Positions 452-37,675 of a stretch of 64,000 bases of DNA are shown in pieces; position 1 is the first letter of the stretch; every line of letters begins with the position of its first letter. A program made the translations under genes and the position numbers. Under the pieces are notes generated by a model. The model did not search any database. It saw nothing but the letters and a program-made list of their open reading frames with translations, and was not told the origin of the DNA. The stretch comes from Candidatus Gastranaerophilales bacterium (lineage in GTDB: Bacteria; Cyanobacteriota; Vampirovibrionia; Gastranaerophilales; JAILCC01): contig JAZLLQ010000042.1 of NCBI GenBank assembly GCA_045598245.1, positions 2,976 through 66,975 of the forward strand, written 5' to 3'.

Positions 452-464
452 TTTTAAGACGACT

Positions 465-537
465 TGGGCGATACAGGGCTCGAACCTGTGACCCCCTGAA
501 TGTCATTCAGATGCGCTACCAACTGCGCTAATCGCCC
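465..537 (-). tRNA. tRNA-Val (anticodon GAC)
   Basis: The reverse complement reads GGGCGAT-TA-GCGC-AGTTGGTA-GCGC-A-TCTGA-ATGACAT-TCAGG-GGGTC-ACAGG-TTCGAGC-CCTGT-ATCGCCC-A. This folds as a full cloverleaf: 7-bp acceptor, D arm, anticodon loop with U33 and GAC at 34-36, and a TTCGAGC T loop. CCA is not encoded. Confidence 0.9.
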
Positions 538-723
538 ACAAATCTTTATTTAATTGTCAAATCTTTTTAACCGCGCAGTTGGTTTAATCTAAATACCTCC
601 GCTGCTGCTCCGGTTTGGCGCTAATGCCCACAAATCTTTATTTAATTGTCAAATCTTTTTAACTGCGCAGTTGGTTTAATCTAAATACCTCCGCTGCTGC
701 TCCGGTTTGGTGCTAATCGCCCA
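525..723. repeat. tandem direct repeat, about 93 bp x 2.15, starting inside the tRNA-Val 5' end
   Basis: Unit 1 is 525-617, unit 2 is 618-709 (one 1-nt deletion and one C/T change), and a partial unit 3 is 710-723. Each unit begins with a copy of tRNA positions 1-13 (gcgctaatcgccc on the + strand). Each also contains gcgcagttgg, an inverted copy of the tRNA D-arm segment ccaactgcgc. Confidence 0.85.
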
Positions 724-802: not shown

Positions 803-898
803 CATAAAAGATATCACCTGACATAAATATCAGGTGATAGAAACTTTTCGAAAAAATCCTTACTATAGTAACGTTTCGAAAGCATTTATTGTATAATA
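803..898 (-). ncRNA. tracrRNA (type II-C)
   Basis: On the minus strand, 897->863 reads AUUAUACAAUAAAUGCUUUCGAAACGUUACUAUAG. This pairs with the minus-strand CRISPR repeat transcript as 24 bp perfect, a 4-nt internal loop, then 7 bp perfect. It is followed by UAAGG, a weak UUCG stem, and a perfect 10-bp hairpin (812-821/830-839) with a U-rich tail (UCUUUUAUG). Confidence 0.8.
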
Positions 899-902
899 AG
901 AA

Positions 903-930
903 ATTATATAAAATAAAATTTACTTGTCAA
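903..930 (-). promoter_or_regulatory. sigma70-type promoter for tracrRNA
   Basis: On the minus strand: TTGACA (930-925), a 16-nt spacer, then TATAAT (908-903). The predicted start is about 6-7 nt downstream, at the first base of the anti-repeat (about 897-898). Confidence 0.6.
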
Positions 931-964
931 CAACTGCTTTTAATATTTTCAAGGAGAATATAGC

Positions 965-3900
965 ATGGAAAAAATTTTAGGTTTAGATATAGGTATAGCA
1001 TCAGTCGGATATTCCGTTATTAATTATGATGATGAAAATTTTAACGGTGAAATTTTAAAAACAGGTGTAAGAGTTTTTGAAGCATGTGAAGTTGCTAAGA
1101 CAAAAGAATCATTGAATGTTGCACGCAGAAATTTTAGAGGAACAAGGAGAGTTTTATCAAGACGACAAAACAGATTAAAATCAATAAAACAATTGTTTAT
1201 TTCAAATAATTATTCAACCGAAGAACAAATAAATAATATGTTTTACGGAACATCAAACAGAATTGATGTTTGGGAATTAAGAAAATCGGCTTTAAACAGA
1301 CTTTTGACAATTGAAGAATTTTATAGAATACTTCATCAAATCGCTAAAAGACGAGGCTTTAAATCCATAAGAAAATCTGAAGAAGCAAAGAGAGAAGGTT
1401 CTTTGTTAAAAGGTTTAAAAGAAAACAAATTAAATTTTGAAAACAGTAGTTATCAGACAATTGGTGAAATGTTTGCAACAATTTATACCGGTGATGATGC
1501 AAAAAGAAACAAAAGAGATGACTATAAAAACTCTATCCCGAGGGAATTATTACTGGAAGAAATTGAAATAATATTTAAAAAACAACGTGAATTTGGTGCC
1601 GAATTTGCAAGCGAAGATTTTGAAAATGAATATAAAAGAATAGCGTTTTATCAAAGAGCTTTGCAATCAATGGAAAATATGGTCGGATATTGTCAATTTG
1701 AAAAAGATAAAAAAAGAGCGCCAAAAGCAGCATATACATCAGAAATTTTCGTAGCAGCACAAAAATTAGTCAACACAAAATTATTATCAACAAGCGGTGA
1801 TGAATTAAATTTATCGGGCGAACAAATTAATGAAATTATTGAGCTTGCACATTCAAATTCAAAAGTAACTTATAAACAAGCAAGAAAATTACTTGAACTT
1901 GATGAGGATATCCGTTTTAAAACTCTGCAATACGGTAAAATTCAAAAAGATAAAAAAACAGGTGAAGAAAAAGTTATTAATCCTGAAGATGCTACTTTAA
2001 TTGAACTTAAAAAATATCAGGAATTTAAAAAAGCAATAATTAAAAATACAAATGAAGCATATTTTGAAACAATAAAATATGATAAAGATTTATTCAATAA
2101 TATTGCAAGAATTTTAACTTACGAAAAGTCTGATGAAGCAATCAGAGAACAAATGAAAAACGAAGGAATTTGCGAAAATATTATTAACAGTGTGATTGAT
2201 ATTTCAGCAAGTAAAGTTATGCACTTATCAATTGAAGCTATGGAAAAAATTATTCCTTATATGTTACAAGGTTTAAAATACAATGATGCTTGTGAGCAAG
2301 CAGGGTATAATTTTAAAAATGACAAAAAGTCGAAAGGTTTAGAATTTTTACCTGTATTACAAGAACAAACGACAAATCCTGTTGTAAACAGAAGTATTTC
2401 TCAAACAAGAAAAGTAATAAATGCTTTAATCAGAGAATATGGGAAATTTGATAAAATCATTATTGAAACCGCAAGAGATTTAGGCAAATCTGTTGAGGAA
2501 AGAAATAAAATCATTTCAGGTCAAAAAGATTTCCAAAACGAAAAAGAATTAGCCAAGGCAAGATGTATTGAAAATGGTATAAATCCTGAGTCAAAAAATA
2601 ATTTGTTAAGATTTAGACTTTGGGAAGAACAAGGCGGATATTGTCCGTACTCTAAAAAACCTATTGATATTAAAAGATTATCTGAACCTAATTATACGGA
2701 TATTGATCATATTATCCCTTATTCAAGATGTTTTGATGACAGTTTAAATAATAAAGTTCTTTGTCTTTCTGATGAAAACAGGCAAAAAGGTAATAAAATT
2801 CCTTACGAATATTTATCAGGGAAATATAATTGGGATGAATATTCTGTTTGGATTAGAGCATTAAAATTACGTTCAGCAAAACAAAACAGACTTTTAAGAA
2901 AAACTTATGCAGCTGATGAAGAAGGTTTTTCAAGTCGTAATTTGAATGATACTCGTTATATTACAACTTTTATCAAAGATTATTTAAAGGAAAATCTTTC
3001 AAGTAAAGTTCAAACAAGAAACGGTTCATTAACTGCATACCTGAGAAATCAATGGGGAATAAATAAAAACCGTGAAGAAAATGACCGCCACCACGCAATT
3101 GATGCAACTGTTCTTGCTTGTTCAACACAAGGTATGGTTCAATATTTATCAACAATTTCAGCAAAAAGAGAAAACTATGATTTTATAAACGGCTCAAAAC
3201 CTAAATTTAAAAAGCCGTGGGAAACTTTTAGCGAAGATTTGAAAAAATCAATTTCTGAAATTTTTGTATCTCGTGCCACGAGAAATAAAATCCCCGGCGG
3301 AATGCACAAAGCAACTATTTATAGTCCAAAACATCTTGATGAAGGTTTTAAAACATTAAAAATATCAATACAGGATATAACTTTAGAAAAACTTGAAACA
3401 ATGTTTGATAAAGAAAGAAATATCGCAATTTATAATGTTTTAAAAGAAAGATTAATTGAATTTAATAATAACCCGCAAAAAGCATTTACAAAGCCTGTTT
3501 ATATGCCGTTATCAGAAGTAAAACAACAGGCAGGAATAAAACCGCATGAAATAAAAACAGTAAAATTAAAAATTTCAGGAACATCAGGGCTGAAAGTTCA
3601 TAACGGTTTTGCAGAGAATGATTCTATGCCGAGAACCGATGTATTTTCCAAGAAAAACAAAAAAGGTAAAGAAGAATTTTATCTCGTTCCTATTTATGTT
3701 TCGGATTTTGCAAAAGGAGTTTTGCCTAACAAAGCAATTTCTACAGGAAAAGATGAAATCATTATTGATGATACGTTTGCTTTTAAGTTTTCTATGTTTC
3801 CTAACACTTTAATTTGTGCCAATAAAACAACAAATCCAAAAGAAGAACAATGGGGATATTTTAGAGGTACGGATATTGATTCTGCAAGGATAACATTAAT

Positions 3901-4057
3901 TGATGTTGATAATTCTCAAAATAGAAATAGAGTAGCAGTGAAGAGTTTGGAAACATTTAAAAAATACCAAGTCGATATTTTAGGTAATTATCATGAAGTT
4001 AAAAGTGAATCACGTCAACCGATAAAACTTAAAAATACAAATAAGAAAGCTAAATAA
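965..4057 (+). CDS. cas9: Cas9, compact type II-C-like (1030 aa)
   Basis: RuvC-I is LGLDIGIASVGYSV. The arginine-rich bridge helix is RRNFRGTRRVLSRRQNRLKSIKQL. RuvC-II is IIIETARD. HNH is DIDHIIPYSRCFDDSLNNKVLCLSDENRQKGNKIPYE. RuvC-III is DRHHAIDATVLA. RBS AAGGAG at 951-956. cas1 and cas2 follow, with no csn2 or cas4. Confidence 0.97.
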   Translation: MEKILGLDIGIASVGYSVINYDDENFNGEILKTGVRVFEACEVAKTKESLNVARRNFRGTRRVLSRRQNRLKSIKQLFISNNYSTEEQINNMFYGTSNRIDVWELRKSALNRLLTIEEFYRILHQIAKRRGFKSIRKSEEAKREGSLLKGLKENKLNFENSSYQTIGEMFATIYTGDDAKRNKRDDYKNSIPRELLLEEIEIIFKKQREFGAEFASEDFENEYKRIAFYQRALQSMENMVGYCQFEKDKKRAPKAAYTSEIFVAAQKLVNTKLLSTSGDELNLSGEQINEIIELAHSNSKVTYKQARKLLELDEDIRFKTLQYGKIQKDKKTGEEKVINPEDATLIELKKYQEFKKAIIKNTNEAYFETIKYDKDLFNNIARILTYEKSDEAIREQMKNEGICENIINSVIDISASKVMHLSIEAMEKIIPYMLQGLKYNDACEQAGYNFKNDKKSKGLEFLPVLQEQTTNPVVNRSISQTRKVINALIREYGKFDKIIIETARDLGKSVEERNKIISGQKDFQNEKELAKARCIENGINPESKNNLLRFRLWEEQGGYCPYSKKPIDIKRLSEPNYTDIDHIIPYSRCFDDSLNNKVLCLSDENRQKGNKIPYEYLSGKYNWDEYSVWIRALKLRSAKQNRLLRKTYAADEEGFSSRNLNDTRYITTFIKDYLKENLSSKVQTRNGSLTAYLRNQWGINKNREENDRHHAIDATVLACSTQGMVQYLSTISAKRENYDFINGSKPKFKKPWETFSEDLKKSISEIFVSRATRNKIPGGMHKATIYSPKHLDEGFKTLKISIQDITLEKLETMFDKERNIAIYNVLKERLIEFNNNPQKAFTKPVYMPLSEVKQQAGIKPHEIKTVKLKISGTSGLKVHNGFAENDSMPRTDVFSKKNKKGKEEFYLVPIYVSDFAKGVLPNKAISTGKDEIIIDDTFAFKFSMFPNTLICANKTTNPKEEQWGYFRGTDIDSARITLIDVDNSQNRNRVAVKSLETFKKYQVDILGNYHEVKSESRQPIKLKNTNKKAK

Positions 4058-4944
4058 TGAGTTGGAAAACAATATTATTTTCTAATCCCTGTAAACTTCA
4101 CATAAAGAATTATCAACTTGTTTATCAAAATGATAATTCTTGTGAAGAAATTTCGATTCCTATGGAAGATATAGGAACAATAATTTTGGAAAATTCTCAA
4201 ATTACAATAACAAATTATATGTTATCAATGTGTGCGGATTATGAAATTACCGTTTTAACCTGCGATAACAAACATAAGCCTAACGGGATTTTGACTCCGT
4301 TTTATCAACACAGCAGAAATACAAAAGTTGCTTTTGCACATATAAACATGAAAGAGCCGTTAAAAAAACAAATTTGGCAAAAAATTATTAAACAAAAAAT
4401 AAAAAATCAATCTGTTGTTTTAAAAATATTATTTGAAAATGATTATTTAGACTTATTTATAAACAAAGTCCAATCAGGTGATACAACTAATATTGAAAGT
4501 TACACCTCGAAACTTTATTGGCAAATACTTTTTGATAATTTTAAACGTCATTCGGCAGATAAAATAAACGCTTGTCTTGATTACGGGTATGCAATTATCA
4601 GAAGTACAATTTCTAAATATATTGCCTCAAGCGGTTTAATTCCGTGCTTGGGTGTTCATCACTGTAATGAATTAAATGCTTTTAATTTAACAGAAGATTT
4701 AATAGAATCGTTCAGACCATTTGTTGATTTAATGGTAAGCAGTATGGATATTGTTAATGATACGGAATTAAACAAAAACGATAAAGCATATCTTTTATCA
4801 ATATTAACAAAACAATGTCAATTTAAAGGTGAACAAATAACGGTTCAAAATGCTTGCGAAAATATTTGCAAAACTTTTGTTAAAACAATTTCAGAAAAAA
4901 ATATAAATTTATTAGAGTTACCTGAATTTATAGAGGAAAAATGA
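4057..4944 (+). CDS. cas1: Cas1 integrase (type II)
   Basis: 295 aa. The start overlaps the cas9 stop (TAATG). The sequence and size are typical of type II Cas1, and it sits between cas9 and cas2. Confidence 0.93.
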   Translation: MSWKTILFSNPCKLHIKNYQLVYQNDNSCEEISIPMEDIGTIILENSQITITNYMLSMCADYEITVLTCDNKHKPNGILTPFYQHSRNTKVAFAHINMKEPLKKQIWQKIIKQKIKNQSVVLKILFENDYLDLFINKVQSGDTTNIESYTSKLYWQILFDNFKRHSADKINACLDYGYAIIRSTISKYIASSGLIPCLGVHHCNELNAFNLTEDLIESFRPFVDLMVSSMDIVNDTELNKNDKAYLLSILTKQCQFKGEQITVQNACENICKTFVKTISEKNINLLELPEFIEEK

Positions 4945-5273
4945 GTATAAAAGGTGATGATATTTTTATGCGTTTATTTGTGTTTTTTGACCTTCCTGTT
5001 GCAACAAAAAAAGACAGAAAATTTGCGACTCGTTTTAGAAAAGACTTGTTAAATGAAGGATTTACCATGTTACAGTTTTCTGTTTATTGCAGAATTTGCA
5101 GAGGACATGATATTGTCGAACGAGAAATCCGAAGGATAAAAGCAGTTTTACCACCAAAAGGTAATGTTAGAATTTTGCAAGTAACTGACAAGCAATATGG
5201 CAATATGCAATTTTTAGTAGGCATGCCTAAAAAAGAAGAAATTATTGCTTCCGAACAGTTACTTTTATTCTGA
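4941..5273 (+). CDS. cas2: Cas2
   Basis: 110 aa with a 4-nt ATGA overlap with cas1. An N-terminal beta strand with the conserved Asp (LFVFFDLP), typical of Cas2, lies directly upstream of the array. The true start may be the internal M10 (MRLFVFFD). Confidence 0.9.
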   Translation: MSIKGDDIFMRLFVFFDLPVATKKDRKFATRFRKDLLNEGFTMLQFSVYCRICRGHDIVEREIRRIKAVLPPKGNVRILQVTDKQYGNMQFLVGMPKKEEIIASEQLLLF

Positions 5274-5291
5274 TTTTTTTAAAATAAAAAG

Positions 5292-5329
5292 ACCAAACCT
5301 CTTATGCTTACTTGGTTTTGAGGTTTGGT
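5292..5329 (-). terminator. hairpin between cas2 and the array; acts as a Rho-independent terminator on the minus strand
   Basis: A 10-bp perfect stem, accaaacctc (5292-5301) / gaggtttggt (5320-5329). On the minus strand it is followed by cuuuuuauuuu. There is no T tract on the plus side. Confidence 0.55.
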
Positions 5330-6750
5330 ATTATACAATAAATGCTTTCGAAAGGAAACTATAGCTGTCCAAGCTGTACCATGTTTTTTTACATCATTAT
5401 ACAATAAATGCTTTCGAAAGGAAACTATAGCAGATATTACGGATGAAAAGGAAGTTGATTTATTATACAATAAATGCTTTCGAAAGGAAACTATAGCTAT
5501 GATTTTTGAAATATCAAACTGCATGGCATTATACAATAAATGCTTTCGAAAGGAAACTATAGCACCGTTGTAAAATAATCTCTCAATTCACTTATTATAC
5601 AATAAATGCTTTCGAAAGGAAACTATAGCAGGTCAAAGGTTAAGTTCATTTGATACTCGATTATACAATAAATGCTTTCGAAAGGAAACTATAGCTTAAT
5701 GCCGACTTCAAAGGTAAACATCGCAATTATACAATAAATGCTTTCGAAAGGAAACTATAGCTAAGATGTTTTTCTTCTTTTTTTACAGGTTATTATACAA
5801 TAAATGCTTTCGAAAGGAAACTATAGCTCTTTTAAAGTTTTAATTTCGCTTTGCAAAATTATACAATAAATGCTTTCGAATGGAAACTATAGCGGGGTGG
5901 TACTTGCGAACAAATGAGAGAGGATTATACAATAAATGCTTTCGAAAGGATACTATAGCTCAGTTAAGTCATCAATCCTTTTTATATCAATTATACAATA
6001 AATGCTTTCGAAAGGAAACTATAGCCGGAAACAATTTTATTGCCATTCTGTGAAGATTATACAATAAATGCTTTCGAAAGGAAACTATAGCTTCAGTACC
6101 AACGATGTCATATCCGATAAATTATACAATAAATGCTTTCGAAAGGAAACTATAGCCAATGTTCAAAAACATTGTTGGGAAAAAAGATTATACAATAAAT
6201 GCTTTCGAAAGGAAACTATAGCTCATCCCAATTATCTTTTTGTGCTGCATCAATTATACAATAAATGCTTTCGAAAGGAAACTATAGCCTTATGATGGCA
6301 ATTATCAAAGAGCTATTGATTATACAATAAATACTTCCGAAAGGAAACTATAGCTGGAAGTGCAAGTCTTGCAACTCCTCAGATATTATACAATAAATAC
6401 TTCCGAAAGGAAACTATAGCTTACTCTGCAATTCAAGCACCCGAAAGTTCATTATACAATAAATGCTTTCGAAAGGAAACTATAGCGCGTTTATTCATTT
6501 CCCAAATAACGCCGTGATTATACAATAAATGCTTTCGAAAGGAAACTATAGCGGCAAATTGTCTTTGACTTCTTTGTCCATAATTATACAATAAATGCTT
6601 TTGAAAGGAAACTATAGCATGTTTATGGAACTTCCCGAACCTGCAAAGATTATACAATAAATGCTTTCGAAAGGAAACTATAGTATTATAGACCAAGCAC
6701 CCGATTCTATTTTTATTATACAATAAATACTTTCGAAGTGTGCCAAAATT
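5330..6750 (-). CRISPR. CRISPR array, 22 repeats x 36 nt, 21 spacers (20 of 30 nt, one of 29 nt)
   Basis: The + strand repeat is attatacaataaatgctttcgaaaggaaactatagc, with starts at 5330, 5396, 5462 ... 6649. Variant repeats start at 5858, 5924, 6319, 6385, 6583 and 6649. The terminal repeat at 6715 is degenerate (attatacaataaatactttcgaagtgtgcc...). The minus strand is inferred as the transcribed strand from tracrRNA complementarity, the TATAAT at each repeat end, and the terminator at 5292-5329. Confidence 0.95.
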
Positions 6751-6804: not shown

Positions 6805-7056
6805 CTAAAATCTATCACAAATTAATGTTTTACCCGTGGTTTTTCGTATAAATTTTGCGATAAAGGCTTTGATAGGATTAACTTTTATATCGTGTAATTT
6901 TTTTACTAATACTGCTTTTTCAATTAATAATCTGTTAAAAGCAATATTGGCTTCGTCAGATACCAATTTTTCTGCCGTAAATTGTTTTAGTCTGTGTTTT
7001 GTCAGACGAATAGATTTTTCTAATTGTTCTTGAGTTTCGTTCATTTTTATAACCAT
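6805..7056 (-). CDS. hypothetical small helical protein
   Basis: 83-aa ORF (or 79 aa from MNETQEQ at 7044) with coiled-coil-like composition. It lies directly upstream of the array on the minus strand, co-directional with inferred crRNA transcription. No recognisable family. Confidence 0.4.
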   Translation of the reverse strand: MVIKMNETQEQLEKSIRLTKHRLKQFTAEKLVSDEANIAFNRLLIEKAVLVKKLHDIKVNPIKAFIAKFIRKTTGKTLICDRF

Positions 7057-7215: not shown

Positions 7216-7587
7216 ATGGTTTACGGTATTTACGGACAAAAAGCACAAGGTTCAAGCACTATTTCGCAGACTCAACCAAGTATAATTAATAATTATTACT
7301 GTATAAAACCTCAAGAGCCTGACAGCTACAAAGGCAAAACTCTTAAAAGAGTTTTAACATTTGCAGGTATAGCATCAGCCTTGTTATTCCATAAAAATAT
7401 TGCAAACTGTATCCAAAAATATGCCCCCGGCTTCTATGAGTGGTGTGGTAATCACATCGGTAAATATGCAAGGAACATTATCACAAGAAACCCTGAGAAT
7501 TTCTTGGTTAAAAATGCAGTTTTATCAAAAACAAAACTCGCTCAATGGGGCGATGCTACTATAAAATTTTTCAAATCAGCTGTATAA
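7216..7587 (+). CDS. hypothetical protein with one hydrophobic segment
   Basis: 123-aa ORF preceded by AAGGAG (7203-7208). One hydrophobic helix, VLTFAGIASALLF. No family recognised. Confidence 0.45.
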   Translation: MVYGIYGQKAQGSSTISQTQPSIINNYYCIKPQEPDSYKGKTLKRVLTFAGIASALLFHKNIANCIQKYAPGFYEWCGNHIGKYARNIITRNPENFLVKNAVLSKTKLAQWGDATIKFFKSAV

Positions 7588-10174: not shown

Positions 10175-13100
10175 TTAGTGATCACCTTTTTCGGAGTATT
10201 CATCAAAAATAAAATCATCATCGTATGAAAAAACTCTGTCTGAATATTCTGTTAATTTTAATTCTGCAATTTTTCTTCCGGCTTTTTTATATTCTTTTAC
10301 ACCATTATCATTTTTGAATGATGCAAATTTACTCATTGCTTTTTCAAAACCTCTTAAAATTCTGAAATCATCCTTCGATTTATGATGTTCATAAATTTCT
10401 TGTTTAGCTTTTGCAGTTAAAGTAGAAATTATTTCTCTGCCTTTGTTATCGGTTGTCAAAATTTGGGTATCTTTGTTTATATAAAATTCTTCAACAAATT
10501 TCGTAATTATTGCCTTTGAAATTTCATCATTTATATTAAATCTTTCCATAAATTTATTTAAGTAATTATCGTCTTCATCATCAGAAGCAAACCAATTGTC
10601 TAACTTCATCAAATAAGGAGTTGCTTTTTCTGATGATAAATCAAATCTTTTTAGAATTTCAAAAAATGCGGATGGAATACTTGTTTTAATTTCATTACCT
10701 TTCAAATAATTTTCATACATATTTGCTAAAACAATGTATTGTCCTGCTCTTTGAGGATTAATTTTCCCCGCATGTTTTGAAGAATTTTTTTCCGCTGCTT
10801 TAACCGTTTTTAAATTTGAATTTTTTGCATCCCAATAGGTTAATTTATATGTTGCGGCTTTAATATCGTTATCGGAATTTACGTCTTGTATTGTTTCAAC
10901 GATATATTCGGCTTCTTCTATATTTTCGTCTTTATCCTTATCCGGCATATATTTTTCATAAAAAATATTGGCTAAATCATCTTCACCTTTTTGGTACAGA
11001 ATATCAAGAACAGCAATAAAATTATCCTGAATATTATCAATATTATCTTTCCATTCTCTTATATTTTGAGCCTCACTACTTTCTAAGGCTTGTTCAGATG
11101 TAATAATACCTAAATTAATTTTATCAATGTTTCTCAAAAAACCTATCATATTTTTTCTTTTATCGGTATTTACATTTTGTCTGCCGTCTATAAAATCAAT
11201 AAGTTCGCAGAGTTCATCATTTTGGCTGATTTTATCATAAACCATAACTTCGACAAATCTGTTTTTCAAATCATCAAGAGTAAATTGTTCATACCTGTGC
11301 TGATGTGTTTCTCGGTAATTATCGGTTTTATTAACAGTAATATTAAATTTCTTTAGCAGATTGCGATATGTAGGACCTGATACATTTAAAGCACGAGAGG
11401 CATCTTTAATGTTTTTGCCGAGAGCAATTTGTTCTAATATCTGCTCTTTCGTGATAGATGCAACATTTTGTCTGATTTTTTTGTAATCAATCATAATATC
11501 AAATTTTTCCACCAGTTGATAATACATACTATCTGCAATACCTAATATATTGCAAATTTGCTCTTTTGTATAACCTTCGGAAATTAATCTGCTTAATTGT
11601 TTTTCCGAAATATTTGATACTTTCTCATGGTATATTTGTCGTTCCGTTAAAAGATTATATTGTGCCAATAATCTTGCAGCTGAAGGTCTTGAAATATTAA
11701 GTTCTCTGCAAATATCATTTATACTTTTACCTGATGATAACATACTTGATAATTGTTCTTTGGTAATAGAGGCAATATTTTCAGAATTTTCCATACGCTG
11801 AGTTTTTATTTTATATATTGTTACTAATCTCTTATATGTACTGTCAGATATTTTTAATTTTTTACATATTTCTTCAGCAGTTAAGCCAAAATCGAGAAGT
11901 TCGGATAATTTTTCTTTTGTAATTCCTTCGATTCTTTTCCTTACTTTCTGCATAGGAGTTAGGATGTGATATTGTTTCAGACGATTTCGGAATGTTCTTT
12001 CAGATACTTTCAATATTTTGCATATTTCAGCAGTTGGCAGACCTTCATTTAAAAGTGAAAGTATTTCTTCTTTAGAAATTTGATTAAGCGGTTTTGCCCA
12101 ATGACAATTAGCTTTTTTTTGAATTTTATAAAGTCTTAATAATCTATGGTACGTTGATTCGGAAATATTTAAAAATTCACATTTTGCTTTTACGGAAGTA
12201 CCTGAATTATATAATTTTATCAAAGTTTCTTTAGGTATTTTGGCAATTCTTTTTTGATTTTGGATTTGTAAATTTTCTATGCCATATTTACGCAGATATC
12301 TGGTAATTGTATCAGGATTTACATTATAGCGTTTTGCAATATCCTTGCGTAGCATACCGCTGTTAATTAAAATTTCCAAATCTTCTTTTTCTATTTTTAT
12401 ATTATCAGTTTTTTCCTGCCAAAATGTTTTGACATTATATTTTTTGAGTAATTGTTGCAATGAACTATGTCCGATATTTAACTCTTTTGAGACTTCTTTA
12501 ATGGTTTTACCTTCTTTGAAAAGTTCTTCCAATTGTTCTTTTGAAATACCGCTTATTATTGCACTGCTCGTTTCCATTTCCTGCATCTTGGGAGTTTTTA
12601 AATTATATTTTTCAAATATGGCACGAGTTGTTTCATAAGTTAACCCTAAAATCTGCTTGATTTCCATTAAAGACTTTCCTTGTTGCAAAAATTCTTCCAA
12701 AGTTTCTTTTGTAACACTTCTTGCAACTTCCCTACTTCTAAGGTTTCTTGTTTTTATTCCAAATTTTTTAAGTAATTTTGTATAAGTACCGGTACTTATA
12801 CCTAAAGCATCTTTAACTTCGTACGTGGTTTTTCCGCTGTTAACAAAATCAAGAAGCTGTTCTTTTGTAATATTTTCTATTACAATATTTATGGCTTTTT
12901 TTGAGTGCAACCCAAATTTTTTTATCAGAGCTTTATACTGATTTATAGAAATATTTAAAATTTCACAAATTTCATTTTTTGATTTACCGATATTTATTAA
13001 TTTTTCTATATCATTTTTAGTTATGATTGCACTTTTTTCTCTTTGTATTTGCTGCAAACTCTTTATTCCATATTTACTCGCATATCCTTTTACGGAATCC

Positions 13101-13345
13101 TTGCTGATGTTATACATGGCTCCGATTTCAGCGTATGTTTTACCTTCATTAACTAATTTTTGCAACTCTTCTTTTGAAATTTCTCTGCCTTTAAAAGAAA
13201 GTTCAAACGTATCATTTGCCTGAAATTTTAAAAAAGGATTATTTGAATGAGAATTATTACTAAAATTATTGTTTCTTTGATATAAATTTCTTTTTAAAAA
13301 TGAAATATAAATTTCCATGAAATTCCCCGGATTTATAGTTTGCAT
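10175..13345 (-). CDS. giant protein with 12 tandem helix-turn-helix modules plus a C-terminal domain of about 340 aa of unknown function
   Basis: 1056-aa ORF (alternative start MEIYISF at 13318). Residues 56 to about 715 are 12 diverged repeats of about 55 aa. Their consensus is I(T/S)KEqLxxLlxxGKsxxEIcxxLnISxsTYxrLlKKfgIkT, a resolvase/Hin-like three-helix HTH pattern. Confidence 0.8.
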   Translation of the reverse strand: MQTINPGNFMEIYISFLKRNLYQRNNNFSNNSHSNNPFLKFQANDTFELSFKGREISKEELQKLVNEGKTYAEIGAMYNISKDSVKGYASKYGIKSLQQIQREKSAIITKNDIEKLINIGKSKNEICEILNISINQYKALIKKFGLHSKKAINIVIENITKEQLLDFVNSGKTTYEVKDALGISTGTYTKLLKKFGIKTRNLRSREVARSVTKETLEEFLQQGKSLMEIKQILGLTYETTRAIFEKYNLKTPKMQEMETSSAIISGISKEQLEELFKEGKTIKEVSKELNIGHSSLQQLLKKYNVKTFWQEKTDNIKIEKEDLEILINSGMLRKDIAKRYNVNPDTITRYLRKYGIENLQIQNQKRIAKIPKETLIKLYNSGTSVKAKCEFLNISESTYHRLLRLYKIQKKANCHWAKPLNQISKEEILSLLNEGLPTAEICKILKVSERTFRNRLKQYHILTPMQKVRKRIEGITKEKLSELLDFGLTAEEICKKLKISDSTYKRLVTIYKIKTQRMENSENIASITKEQLSSMLSSGKSINDICRELNISRPSAARLLAQYNLLTERQIYHEKVSNISEKQLSRLISEGYTKEQICNILGIADSMYYQLVEKFDIMIDYKKIRQNVASITKEQILEQIALGKNIKDASRALNVSGPTYRNLLKKFNITVNKTDNYRETHQHRYEQFTLDDLKNRFVEVMVYDKISQNDELCELIDFIDGRQNVNTDKRKNMIGFLRNIDKINLGIITSEQALESSEAQNIREWKDNIDNIQDNFIAVLDILYQKGEDDLANIFYEKYMPDKDKDENIEEAEYIVETIQDVNSDNDIKAATYKLTYWDAKNSNLKTVKAAEKNSSKHAGKINPQRAGQYIVLANMYENYLKGNEIKTSIPSAFFEILKRFDLSSEKATPYLMKLDNWFASDDEDDNYLNKFMERFNINDEISKAIITKFVEEFYINKDTQILTTDNKGREIISTLTAKAKQEIYEHHKSKDDFRILRGFEKAMSKFASFKNDNGVKEYKKAGRKIAELKLTEYSDRVFSYDDDFIFDEYSEKGDH

Positions 13346-37368: not shown

Positions 37369-37568
37369 TTTAAAACCTTCTTTCTTCTTACTCTATTCTA
37401 AATAACACTATTCAGCACCATTGTCCTACTACAAAGAATAAAGTCAAGTGTAAGAAAAGTTGAGTTGATATTTTCTAAATCTATATACGGTTTTGCATGA
37501 ATACAAATTGTATTATTCCTCTTTTAAAATGAAAATGTTTGTGTTATTATGTATTTGATTGAAAAATC

Positions 37569-37659
37569 GGAAGATTGGTGCGGCAAAAGTCGGCGAACCA
37601 TGTCAGGACGGGAACGTAGCAGCATTAAGCATTAAACTTTTGGGTGTGCCGGTCTTTCT
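37569..37659 (+). ncRNA. ffs: signal recognition particle RNA (small 4.5S type)
   Basis: ACCAUGUCAGGACGGGAACGUAGCAGC...GGGUGUGCCGG matches the conserved domain IV of 4.5S RNA (ACCAGGUCAGGUCCGGAAGGAAGCAGC...GUGUGCCGG). A closing helix, AAGAUUGGUGCG / UGUGCCGGUCUU (with G-U pairs), is followed by a T tract. Confidence 0.75.
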
Positions 37660-37675
37660 TTTTTAAGAGGGTTTT

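Follow-up and report, generated by a model that had tools for sequence, protein, structure and literature searches.

Gene content of the locus

The 64,000-nt stretch of DNA analysed here (hereafter the window) derives from a Candidatus Gastranaerophilales bacterium and harbours, at positions 803-6750, a CRISPR-Cas9 system. An original prediction, made from the letters alone, had described this region as a compact type II-C Cas9 locus. Our sequence analysis confirmed a complete and intact II-C locus of the compact kind on a Gastranaerophilales (Melainabacteria) chromosome, and every element was found in its proposed place, apart from three small corrections (Table 1). The genes cas9, cas1 and cas2 are co-directional on the plus strand. 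The deduced Cas9 scores 784 bits against TIGR01865, the NCBIfam equivalog model for Cas9 (cutoff 100), and carries the Pfam domains HNH_4, RuvC_III and Cas9_RuvC, i.e. a split RuvC domain with an inserted HNH nuclease. Its catalytic motifs (D8, E501, D581-H582, H709-H710 and D713) are all intact. Directly 3' of cas9, cas1 and cas2 make up the whole adaptation module, and Cas1 fits the type II-specific model TIGR03639. Neither csn2 (II-A) nor cas4 (II-B) is present at the locus. On the basis of this gene content the system is assigned to subtype II-C.

The LepA protein of the window is 86% identical to a Candidatus Gastranaerophilales protein. Two related loci (see below) reside on metagenome-assembled genomes labelled Gastranaerophilaceae and 'Cyanobacteria bacterium UBA7753'. 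From the LepA match and these labels we conclude that the host is a non-photosynthetic gut relative of cyanobacteria, with 30% GC.

Table 1. Features of the type II-C CRISPR-Cas9 locus, with positions given in the window; RNA features and promoter elements are predicted.
Feature	Position	Strand	Remarks
tracrRNA (trans-activating CRISPR RNA), about 92-95 nt	803-897	-	anti-repeat, UAAGG, U-run/CGAAAAG segment, terminator hairpin, U-tract
tracrRNA terminator hairpin	812-839	-	12 bp, loop UUUA, followed by UCUUUUAU
Anti-repeat	863-897	-	sole inverted copy of the repeat in the window
tracrRNA promoter, -10 box TATAAT	903-908	-	
tracrRNA promoter, -35 box TTGACA	925-930	-	12/12 to consensus together with the -10 box, 16-nt spacer
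cas9	965-4057	+	1030 aa, II-C type
cas1 (type II, NMENI class)	4057-4944	+	TIGR03639, 279.8 bits; PF01867
cas2	4941-5273	+	TIGR01573; PF09827
Terminator for minus-strand array transcripts	5281-5329	-	10-bp stem, 5292-5301 with 5320-5329, then CUUUUUAUUUU
CRISPR array	5330-6750	-	22 repeats of 36 nt, 21 spacers; minus-strand repeat GCUAUAGUUUCCUUUCGAAAGCAUUUAUUGUAUAAU
Spacer 17	6421-6450	-	30/30 to IMGVR_UViG_3300001598_003459
Degenerate oldest ('extra') repeat	6715-6750	-	first 13 nt diverged; 3' half with the -10 box kept

A predicted tracrRNA gene divergent from cas9

A tracrRNA is recognised by an anti-repeat complementary to the CRISPR repeat. The 24-mer TTTCGAAAGCATTTATTGTATAAT occurs 23 times in the window, 22 times on the minus strand within the array and once on the plus strand (874-897), where chance would give none. 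Since this lone copy is inverted with respect to the 22 array copies, the segment from 897 to 863 is an anti-repeat to a minus-strand repeat transcript, as had been proposed, and this single inverted copy is equipped with a sigma-70 consensus promoter and an intrinsic terminator of its own. The promoter boxes are the only perfect TTGACA-N16-18-TATAAT arrangement in the entire 64 kb (930 to 903, minus strand; 0.08 expected by chance). The proposed promoter sequence is thus borne out, and the predicted transcription start at 897, the sixth base after the -10 box, is plausible. Likewise, the terminator hairpin is present, albeit with a stem of 12 bp that includes one G.U pair instead of the perfect 10 bp initially described. 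Together, promoter and terminator would define both ends of the tracrRNA. No Rfam family matches this RNA.

Upon cofolding of repeat and tracrRNA, the predicted duplex starts at the spacer with a lower stem of seven Watson-Crick pairs plus a terminal G.U pair. It continues with an internal loop made up of a 2x2 mismatch (UU/UU), a single C-G pair and a 1x1 mismatch (C.C), and ends in a 24-bp upper stem. This agrees with the duplex geometry of the original prediction, to which the terminal G.U pair is added.

The CRISPR array

The array begins 56 nt after cas2. Twenty of its spacers are 30 nt long and one has 29 nt; the minus-strand sequence of the repeat is GCTATAGTTTCCTTTCGAAAGCATTTATTGTATAAT. 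All 22 repeats begin on the plus strand with ATTATACAATAAAT, which corresponds to ...AUUUAUUGUAUAAU in the minus-strand reading, and the minus-strand end ATTTATTGTATAAT is found in 22/22 copies, the degenerate last one included. Therefore, the 21 spacers and the TATAAT in every repeat were borne out as sequence features.

Changes within the repeats are unevenly distributed. The first eight, cas2-proximal repeats are perfect and mutually identical, and variants are restricted to the distal two thirds of the array (repeats at 5858, 5924, 6319, 6385, 6583 and 6649), where the repeat at 6715 is degenerate. The neighbouring repeats 6319-6354 and 6385-6420 carry one common double variant (minus strand ...TTTCGGAAGTATTT...), which is consistent with the duplication of a mutated repeat in a single acquisition event.

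Conservation and covariation in related loci

For a comparative analysis, 12 related loci (L001-L012) were retrieved. As L004 and L006 duplicate L003 and L005, 10 distinct loci and the window, i.e. 11 loci in total, were compared. The Cas9 proteins of the 10 loci share 55-81% identity with that of the window, and such homologues are common in gut metagenomes, with at least 45 near-full-length relatives at an identity of 49% or higher.

All loci are organised alike upstream of cas9, on the strand opposite to this gene. A TTGACA-like -35 box is followed after 16-17 nt by a -10 box (TATAAT, TACTAT, TATTTT or TACAAT in the orthologous loci), and the anti-repeat begins 6-7 nt past the -10 box. Then come UAAG, a (U)CGAAAAG segment, a hairpin and AUCUUUU. 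The geometry of the repeat:anti-repeat duplex is identical across the loci. Compensatory changes between repeat and anti-repeat were detected at repeat positions 2, 4, 13, 17, 21, 22, 23 and 24, and the three mismatches of the internal loop are invariant. The stem of the tracrRNA terminator has a different sequence in almost every locus, yet its pairing is always kept; in L009 and L010 the flanking helix GAAAAG:CUUUUU is replaced by GAAG:CUUC. It is important to note that the pairing was judged locus by locus, as a plain MAFFT alignment of the tracrRNAs misaligned the terminator hairpins. The covariation and the conserved layout provide strong evidence for a functional minus-strand tracrRNA, the promoter, anti-repeat, tail and terminator of which, as predicted for the window, recur in the 10 further loci.

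The cas9-cas1-cas2-array modules of L001-L012 are located in unrelated neighbourhoods, e.g. beside an integrase and McrBC (L005) or a phage terminase and portal gene (L008), which suggests that the cas module moves horizontally. An additional arrangement is seen in the related locus retrieved twice, as L005 (10420-11800) and L006 (6718-8270). An orphan repeat and a 136-nt unit, which is duplicated in L006, lie between its cas2 and array, and the active array is followed by an older, decayed one with 37-nt variant repeats.

Orientation of the array

Besides the invariant repeat end and the degenerate distal repeat discussed below, two features argue for the proposed transcription of the array from the minus strand, antisense to the cas operon. 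The internal loop of the duplex is located 8 bp from the spacer in the minus-strand reading only; with a plus-strand transcript, this distance would amount to 24 bp. Moreover, a covarying hairpin with a U-tract follows the cas2-proximal repeat in all related loci. This hairpin, which had been noted on the minus strand of the window (5292-5329), has a 10-bp stem and a folding z-score of -2.84. Eight of its 10 pairs have changed on both sides, 85.5% of the cells pair, and its covariation score was reached by 0/500 shuffles. The tail contains 5-7 T within 8 nt, on the minus strand only. Overall, we regard the II-C identity and the minus-strand orientation as very likely.

Candidate promoters at the repeat ends

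The minus-strand 3' end of the repeat, TTATTGTATAAT, is invariant across the related loci, whereas the middle of the repeat varies. When repeat and tracrRNA are compared position by position, it becomes clear that repeat positions 33-36 never change, but that the tracrRNA bases opposite positions 34-35 vary or fail to pair in 7/11 loci. In several loci, the tracrRNA bases facing the conserved repeat end even precede the predicted start of the tracrRNA. Because the partner bases drift or fall before this start, the conservation of the repeat end is not accounted for by pairing. The comparison thus supports the view that something other than base pairing to the tracrRNA conserves the TATAAT; the boxes probably represent active promoters.

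The degenerate repeat at the distal end of the array matches this view of the TATAAT half. Its last 23 nt are kept with one change (AATTTTGGCACACTTCGAAAGTATTTATTGTATAAT), and the distal repeats of L008 and L009 show the same half-degenerate pattern. According to the literature, II-C systems insert new spacers at the last repeat and furnish every repeat with a promoter of its own, and 60% of the arrays carry mutations in the first, oldest repeat, mostly within the initial 15 nt (PMC12080349). In the window, the distal repeat has lost its tracrRNA-binding half, and only this half, which fits the published mutation pattern of the II-C extra repeat and is in line with the proposed acquisition of spacers at the cas2-proximal end (PMC12080349). 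The 56-nt junction between cas2 and the array, with its hairpin, adjoins the repeat where new spacers should enter. The conserved hairpin abutting this repeat might, though with low probability, double as an anchoring element for spacer integration. As the spacers of L005 and L006 are identical, this pair of loci holds no information on polarity.

Proposed mode of action and alternatives

Taken together, the window likely contains a functional type II-C adaptive immune locus, for which we propose the following mode of action. A tracrRNA of roughly 93 nt would be transcribed divergently from cas9. The TATAAT at each minus-strand repeat 3' end would initiate transcription about 6-8 nt inside the neighbouring spacer, and the resulting CRISPR RNA (crRNA) would consist of a guide of about 22-24 nt and the next repeat. 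The repeat part of the crRNA would pair with the tracrRNA, and Cas9 would take up the duplex. Trimming of the 3' duplex by RNase III may occur, but the enzyme would not be needed for the crRNA 5' end. Transcripts leaving the last, cas2-proximal repeat would halt at the hairpin and U-tract from 5329 to 5281. New spacers would be inserted at the cas2-proximal repeat. The distal, oldest repeat would keep the promoter half that is required for expressing spacer 21; lacking the half that binds tracrRNA and Cas9, it would give no guide-less extraneous crRNA.

A number of observations weigh against this proposal. In the repeats, the TG upstream of the perfect TATAAT stands one base nearer than an extended -10 box (TGnTATAAT) requires, the -35-like element TTTCCT matches at 3/6 positions, and the invariance of the repeat end might instead have its cause in recognition by the Cas1-Cas2 integrase. 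The counts of G.U versus A.C in the array-side hairpin (8 to 4) favour the minus strand weakly. The lone perfect protospacer (see below) is too few for deriving a protospacer adjacent motif (PAM), and its flanks fit both orientations equally. Neither a metagenome scan for the degenerate repeat nor exact look-ups of Cas2 and Cas9 yielded a second contig with the array of the window. All RNA ends and all promoter activity are read from the sequence. Owing to the non-canonical TG spacing, the weak -35 element and the deduced transcription, we place less confidence in the promoters than in the orientation.

With the orientation right and the repeat TATAAT inactive, one long minus-strand pre-crRNA could arise from a promoter located past 6750, e.g. 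as read-through from an 83-aa minus-strand open reading frame (ORF; 7056 to 6805), and be processed by tracrRNA and RNase III; the conserved repeat end would then serve Cas1-Cas2 integration or recognition by RNase III/Cas9. The termini of CRISPR repeats are generally conserved for integration. The ORF ends 55 nt upstream of the array with no terminator found between them, the repeat is devoid of a proper extended -10 and a good -35 box, and the 24-bp upper stem would make a good RNase III substrate. However, the perfect TATAAT is invariant among the related loci in spite of drift in the tracrRNA bases paired with it, the degenerate oldest repeats retain exactly the TATAAT half, and homologous repeat ends have been shown to act as promoters in N. 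meningitidis and C. jejuni (PMC5965381; PMC12080349). We therefore consider such a precursor unlikely as a substitute for repeat promoters, although both modes of transcription are not mutually exclusive.

Far less probable is a plus-strand array, in which a leader made up of the 56 nt after cas2 would drive a plus-strand pre-crRNA, the tracrRNA would be a plus-strand transcript of 863-897 towards cas9, and the repeat at 6715 would be the trailer-end repeat. Degenerate repeats are usually found at the 3' end of an array, a rule that predicts the plus strand here, yet it fails for N. meningitidis and C. jejuni (discussed in PMC3737331). The plus-strand copy of the anti-repeat does have a TATAAT at 892-897, but a tracrRNA in this direction would lack a structured tail and a terminator and would enter the cas9 ribosome-binding site, and the region towards cas9 differs in length and sequence between loci. 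In addition, the internal loop would be misplaced as described, the conserved pair of promoter and terminator lies on the minus strand, and the hairpin after cas2 has its U-tract on this strand only. In view of the tail, the loop position and the strand of promoter and terminator, we rejected the plus-strand model. It is equally improbable that the locus is an inactive relic that was acquired horizontally and lost its expression and use. The unrelated neighbourhoods of the related cas modules do suggest mobility, and only one of eight scanned spacers has a convincing target. Nonetheless, all three ORFs are intact with their catalytic motifs, the eight cas2-nearest repeats are mutually identical, the promoter, anti-repeat and terminators are unimpaired, and spacer 17 perfectly matches a phage contig.

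Relationship to known II-C systems

Among structurally characterised proteins, ThermoCas9 (9ar4) and GeoCas9 (8jtj, 8uza) are the best PDB matches of the window Cas9 (E about 1e-188 to 1e-186; residues 4-764), followed by Nme1 and Nme2 Cas9 (E about 1e-173). Over residues 3-764, the matches to this group range from E 1.8e-188 to 2.2e-173. Named Cas9 relatives in the homology search are about 38-43% identical, a figure that excludes the Geobacillus enzymes. With full-length homology that includes the WED and PAM-interacting (PI) domains, the protein appears to belong to the GeoCas9/Nme-like II-C clade.

The Geobacillus II-C systems (GeoCas9, CaldoCas9, ThermoCas9) share the operon order cas9-cas1-cas2 and a 36-nt repeat with the window. 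The repeats agree in 21/36 positions and have both termini in common, GTATAAT included (GTCATAGTTCCCC...GGTATAAT in Geobacillus versus GCTATAGTTTCC...TGTATAAT in the window); the Geobacillus sequence is GTCATAGTTCCCCTGAGATTATCGCTGTGGTATAAT, as given for CaldoCas9, which is 98% identical to GeoCas9 (PMC8100143). On the other hand, the window protein is about 55 aa shorter, its PI region resembles that of Nme1/Nme2 more closely (141 bits) than that of Geo (103 bits), and the host is a mesophilic gut melainabacterium of 30% GC.

The Neisseria enzymes Nme1Cas9 and Nme2Cas9 are homologous to the window protein over its whole length, WED/PI included, and the N. meningitidis system resembles the window in its array opposite to the cas operon, its repeat-internal promoters (predicted in the window), its 36-nt repeat and its 30-nt spacer. 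There are also differences. In N. meningitidis, the repeat promoter is an extended -10 element, TGnTACAAT, whereas the corresponding sequence in the window is TTGTATAAT. Furthermore, the tracrRNA gene of the window lies upstream of cas9 and is divergent from it. The C. jejuni system has repeat-internal promoters, an antisense array, last-repeat acquisition and measures against extraneous crRNA in common with what is predicted for the window, but CjCas9 is a far more distant protein (5x2g, E 8e-85). The two also differ in their terminators. In C. jejuni, an experimentally tested terminator is located upstream of the array, before the oldest repeat. In the window, the conserved terminator is found downstream, after the newest repeat, and the mutated extra repeat is the mechanism that would apply.

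The arrays of N. meningitidis and C. jejuni are known to be transcribed opposite to the cas operon, and the degenerate-repeat rule mispredicts their orientation (PMC3737331). In N. meningitidis, promoters inside the II-C repeats give crRNA 5' ends independently of RNase III, and similar promoters occur in C. jejuni (PMC5965381). Hence, the novelty implied by the original prediction was overstated. An antisense array with repeat promoters is textbook II-C (PMC3737331, PMC5965381, PMC12080349), and the highlighted features are defining habits of a known clade; new is solely the uncharacterised ortholog from an uncultured lineage. The locus will not surprise a specialist and opens no new mechanistic question. 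Still, the comparison lends independent support, in a lineage not previously studied in this regard, to repeat promoters, last-repeat acquisition and the mutated extra repeat. It also yields a directly designable guide scaffold (crRNA repeat, tracrRNA and single guide RNA junction) for a compact, uncharacterised Cas9 of 1030 aa. A single guide RNA would be arranged in the order 22-24-nt guide, GCUAUAGUUUCCUUUCGAAAGC, GAAA loop, GCUUUCGAAACGUUACUAUAGUAAGGAUUUUUUCGAAAAGUUUCUAUCACCUGAUAUUUAUGUCAGGUGAUAUCUUUU.

Spacer targets and PAM

Eight spacers were scanned against IMG/VR. Exact scans with 20-23-mers of spacers 1, 2, 5, 6, 9 and 16 gave no match in this database. The perfect protospacer of spacer 17 (L021, 2827-2856; 36.6% GC) is located inside a tail-sheath gene (phrog_165, E 1.4e-23) that adjoins a tail-tube gene. 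By this match, an IMG/VR phage contig of 35 kb (34,966 bp) is linked with a Gastranaerophilales host, and such links are rare for this uncultured lineage. A spacer of L007 matches the same tail-sheath gene at 24/30, and in a related contig with 38% GC, 26/30 positions agree with spacer 17 and 25/30 with spacer 11. No DNA-level relative of the L021 phage contig was found in INPHARED. The 11-mer CAAGCACCCGA is common to spacers 17 and 21 (6685-6714), which show no relationship beyond it; in the phage protospacer of spacer 17, it codes for the residues QAPE of the tail sheath.

Other candidates were discarded. A 20-mer of spacer 20 hit 8 contigs with 61-63% GC at 24/30, which was put down to chance or a conserved gene start, and two of three metagenome matches to a 20-mer of spacer 17 were rejected (54-56% GC). 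When the whole array of the window was compared with the INPHARED phages, the only hit was a 25/26-nt Brevibacillus match attributed to chance (E 0.4), and the arrays of L007, L003 and L010 gave weak chance matches only in the same collection. Neither the window nor the related loci are targeted by any spacer.

A type II-C PAM is expected on the 3' side of the protospacer, on the non-target strand. In crRNA sense, the spacer 17 protospacer is flanked by 5' ...AACGGAT and 3' CAAACCACAT; the flank used for PAM comparison is CAAACCAC. The four candidate protospacers, one perfect and three imperfect, share no flank consensus on either side. Thus, the spacer search that had been suggested as a route to the PAM delivered a phage match but no PAM consensus from these four sites and eight scanned spacers. 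The C-terminal PAM-interacting region, which the original prediction could not assign, turned out to be assignable, as the last 266 residues of Cas9 (aligned 766-1021) are homologous to the WED/PI region 828-1082 of Nme1Cas9 (E 4e-40). The PAM contacts of Nme1Cas9 (H1024, T1027 and N1029) align here with D970, a gap and S973. For this reason, N4GATT is unlikely to be the PAM of the window Cas9.

A possible promoter of cas9

In all loci, the ribosome-binding site of cas9 is only 10-35 nt away from the -35 box of the tracrRNA gene. Given this short distance, the cas9 promoter should reside inside or beyond the tracrRNA gene. Just past the tracrRNA terminator, at 771-805 on the plus strand, we noted the motif ACGACCATATTTGACA-N11-TAACAT, which is common to the window, L001, L002, L003 and L011. 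In general terms, it consists of a partial palindrome, yGwCC-N5-7-TTGwCr, and, 11 nt further on, a -10-like TAnnnT box. The motif may constitute an operator and a -10 box of a plus-strand transcript into cas9. That the cas9 mRNA indeed starts outside the tracrRNA gene and reads antisense through all of it is, however, rather doubtful. If this operator and promoter did exist, the tracrRNA and the cas9 5' untranslated region would overlap fully in antisense and form a built-in autoregulatory circuit.

Another hexamer on the plus strand is provided by the complement of the anti-repeat. Its perfect TATAAT (892-897) faces cas9, back to back with the -10 box of the tracrRNA (908 to 903). Elsewhere among the loci the hexamer has drifted (TACGAT, TATACT, TATGAT and others), with the TAnnnT pattern mostly kept.

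Neighbouring features

The small ORFs flanking the locus (5-451, 6805-7056 and 7216-7587) gave no match in PHROGs or PADLOC, and those at 5-451 and 6805-7056 had no Pfam match either. Farther away, a bacterial small signal recognition particle RNA (Rfam RF00169, 52 bits) is encoded at 37567-37663 on the plus strand; with UvrA, IspG, RNR and LepA nearby, it confirms the chromosomal context. A 1056-aa protein (10175-13345, minus strand) seemingly consists of many helix-turn-helix (HTH) repeats and matches 20 HTH-type Pfam families.

Next to the locus, the region 464-724 comprises a tRNA-Val(GAC) gene (464-538, minus strand) followed by two tandem 92-nt units (534-625 and 626-717) that are 98% identical. 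The first ~14 nt of the tRNA-Val recur at the end of each unit. These units may stem from a duplication of the promoter and 5' end of the tRNA, or may be a scar left by integration next to the cas module.

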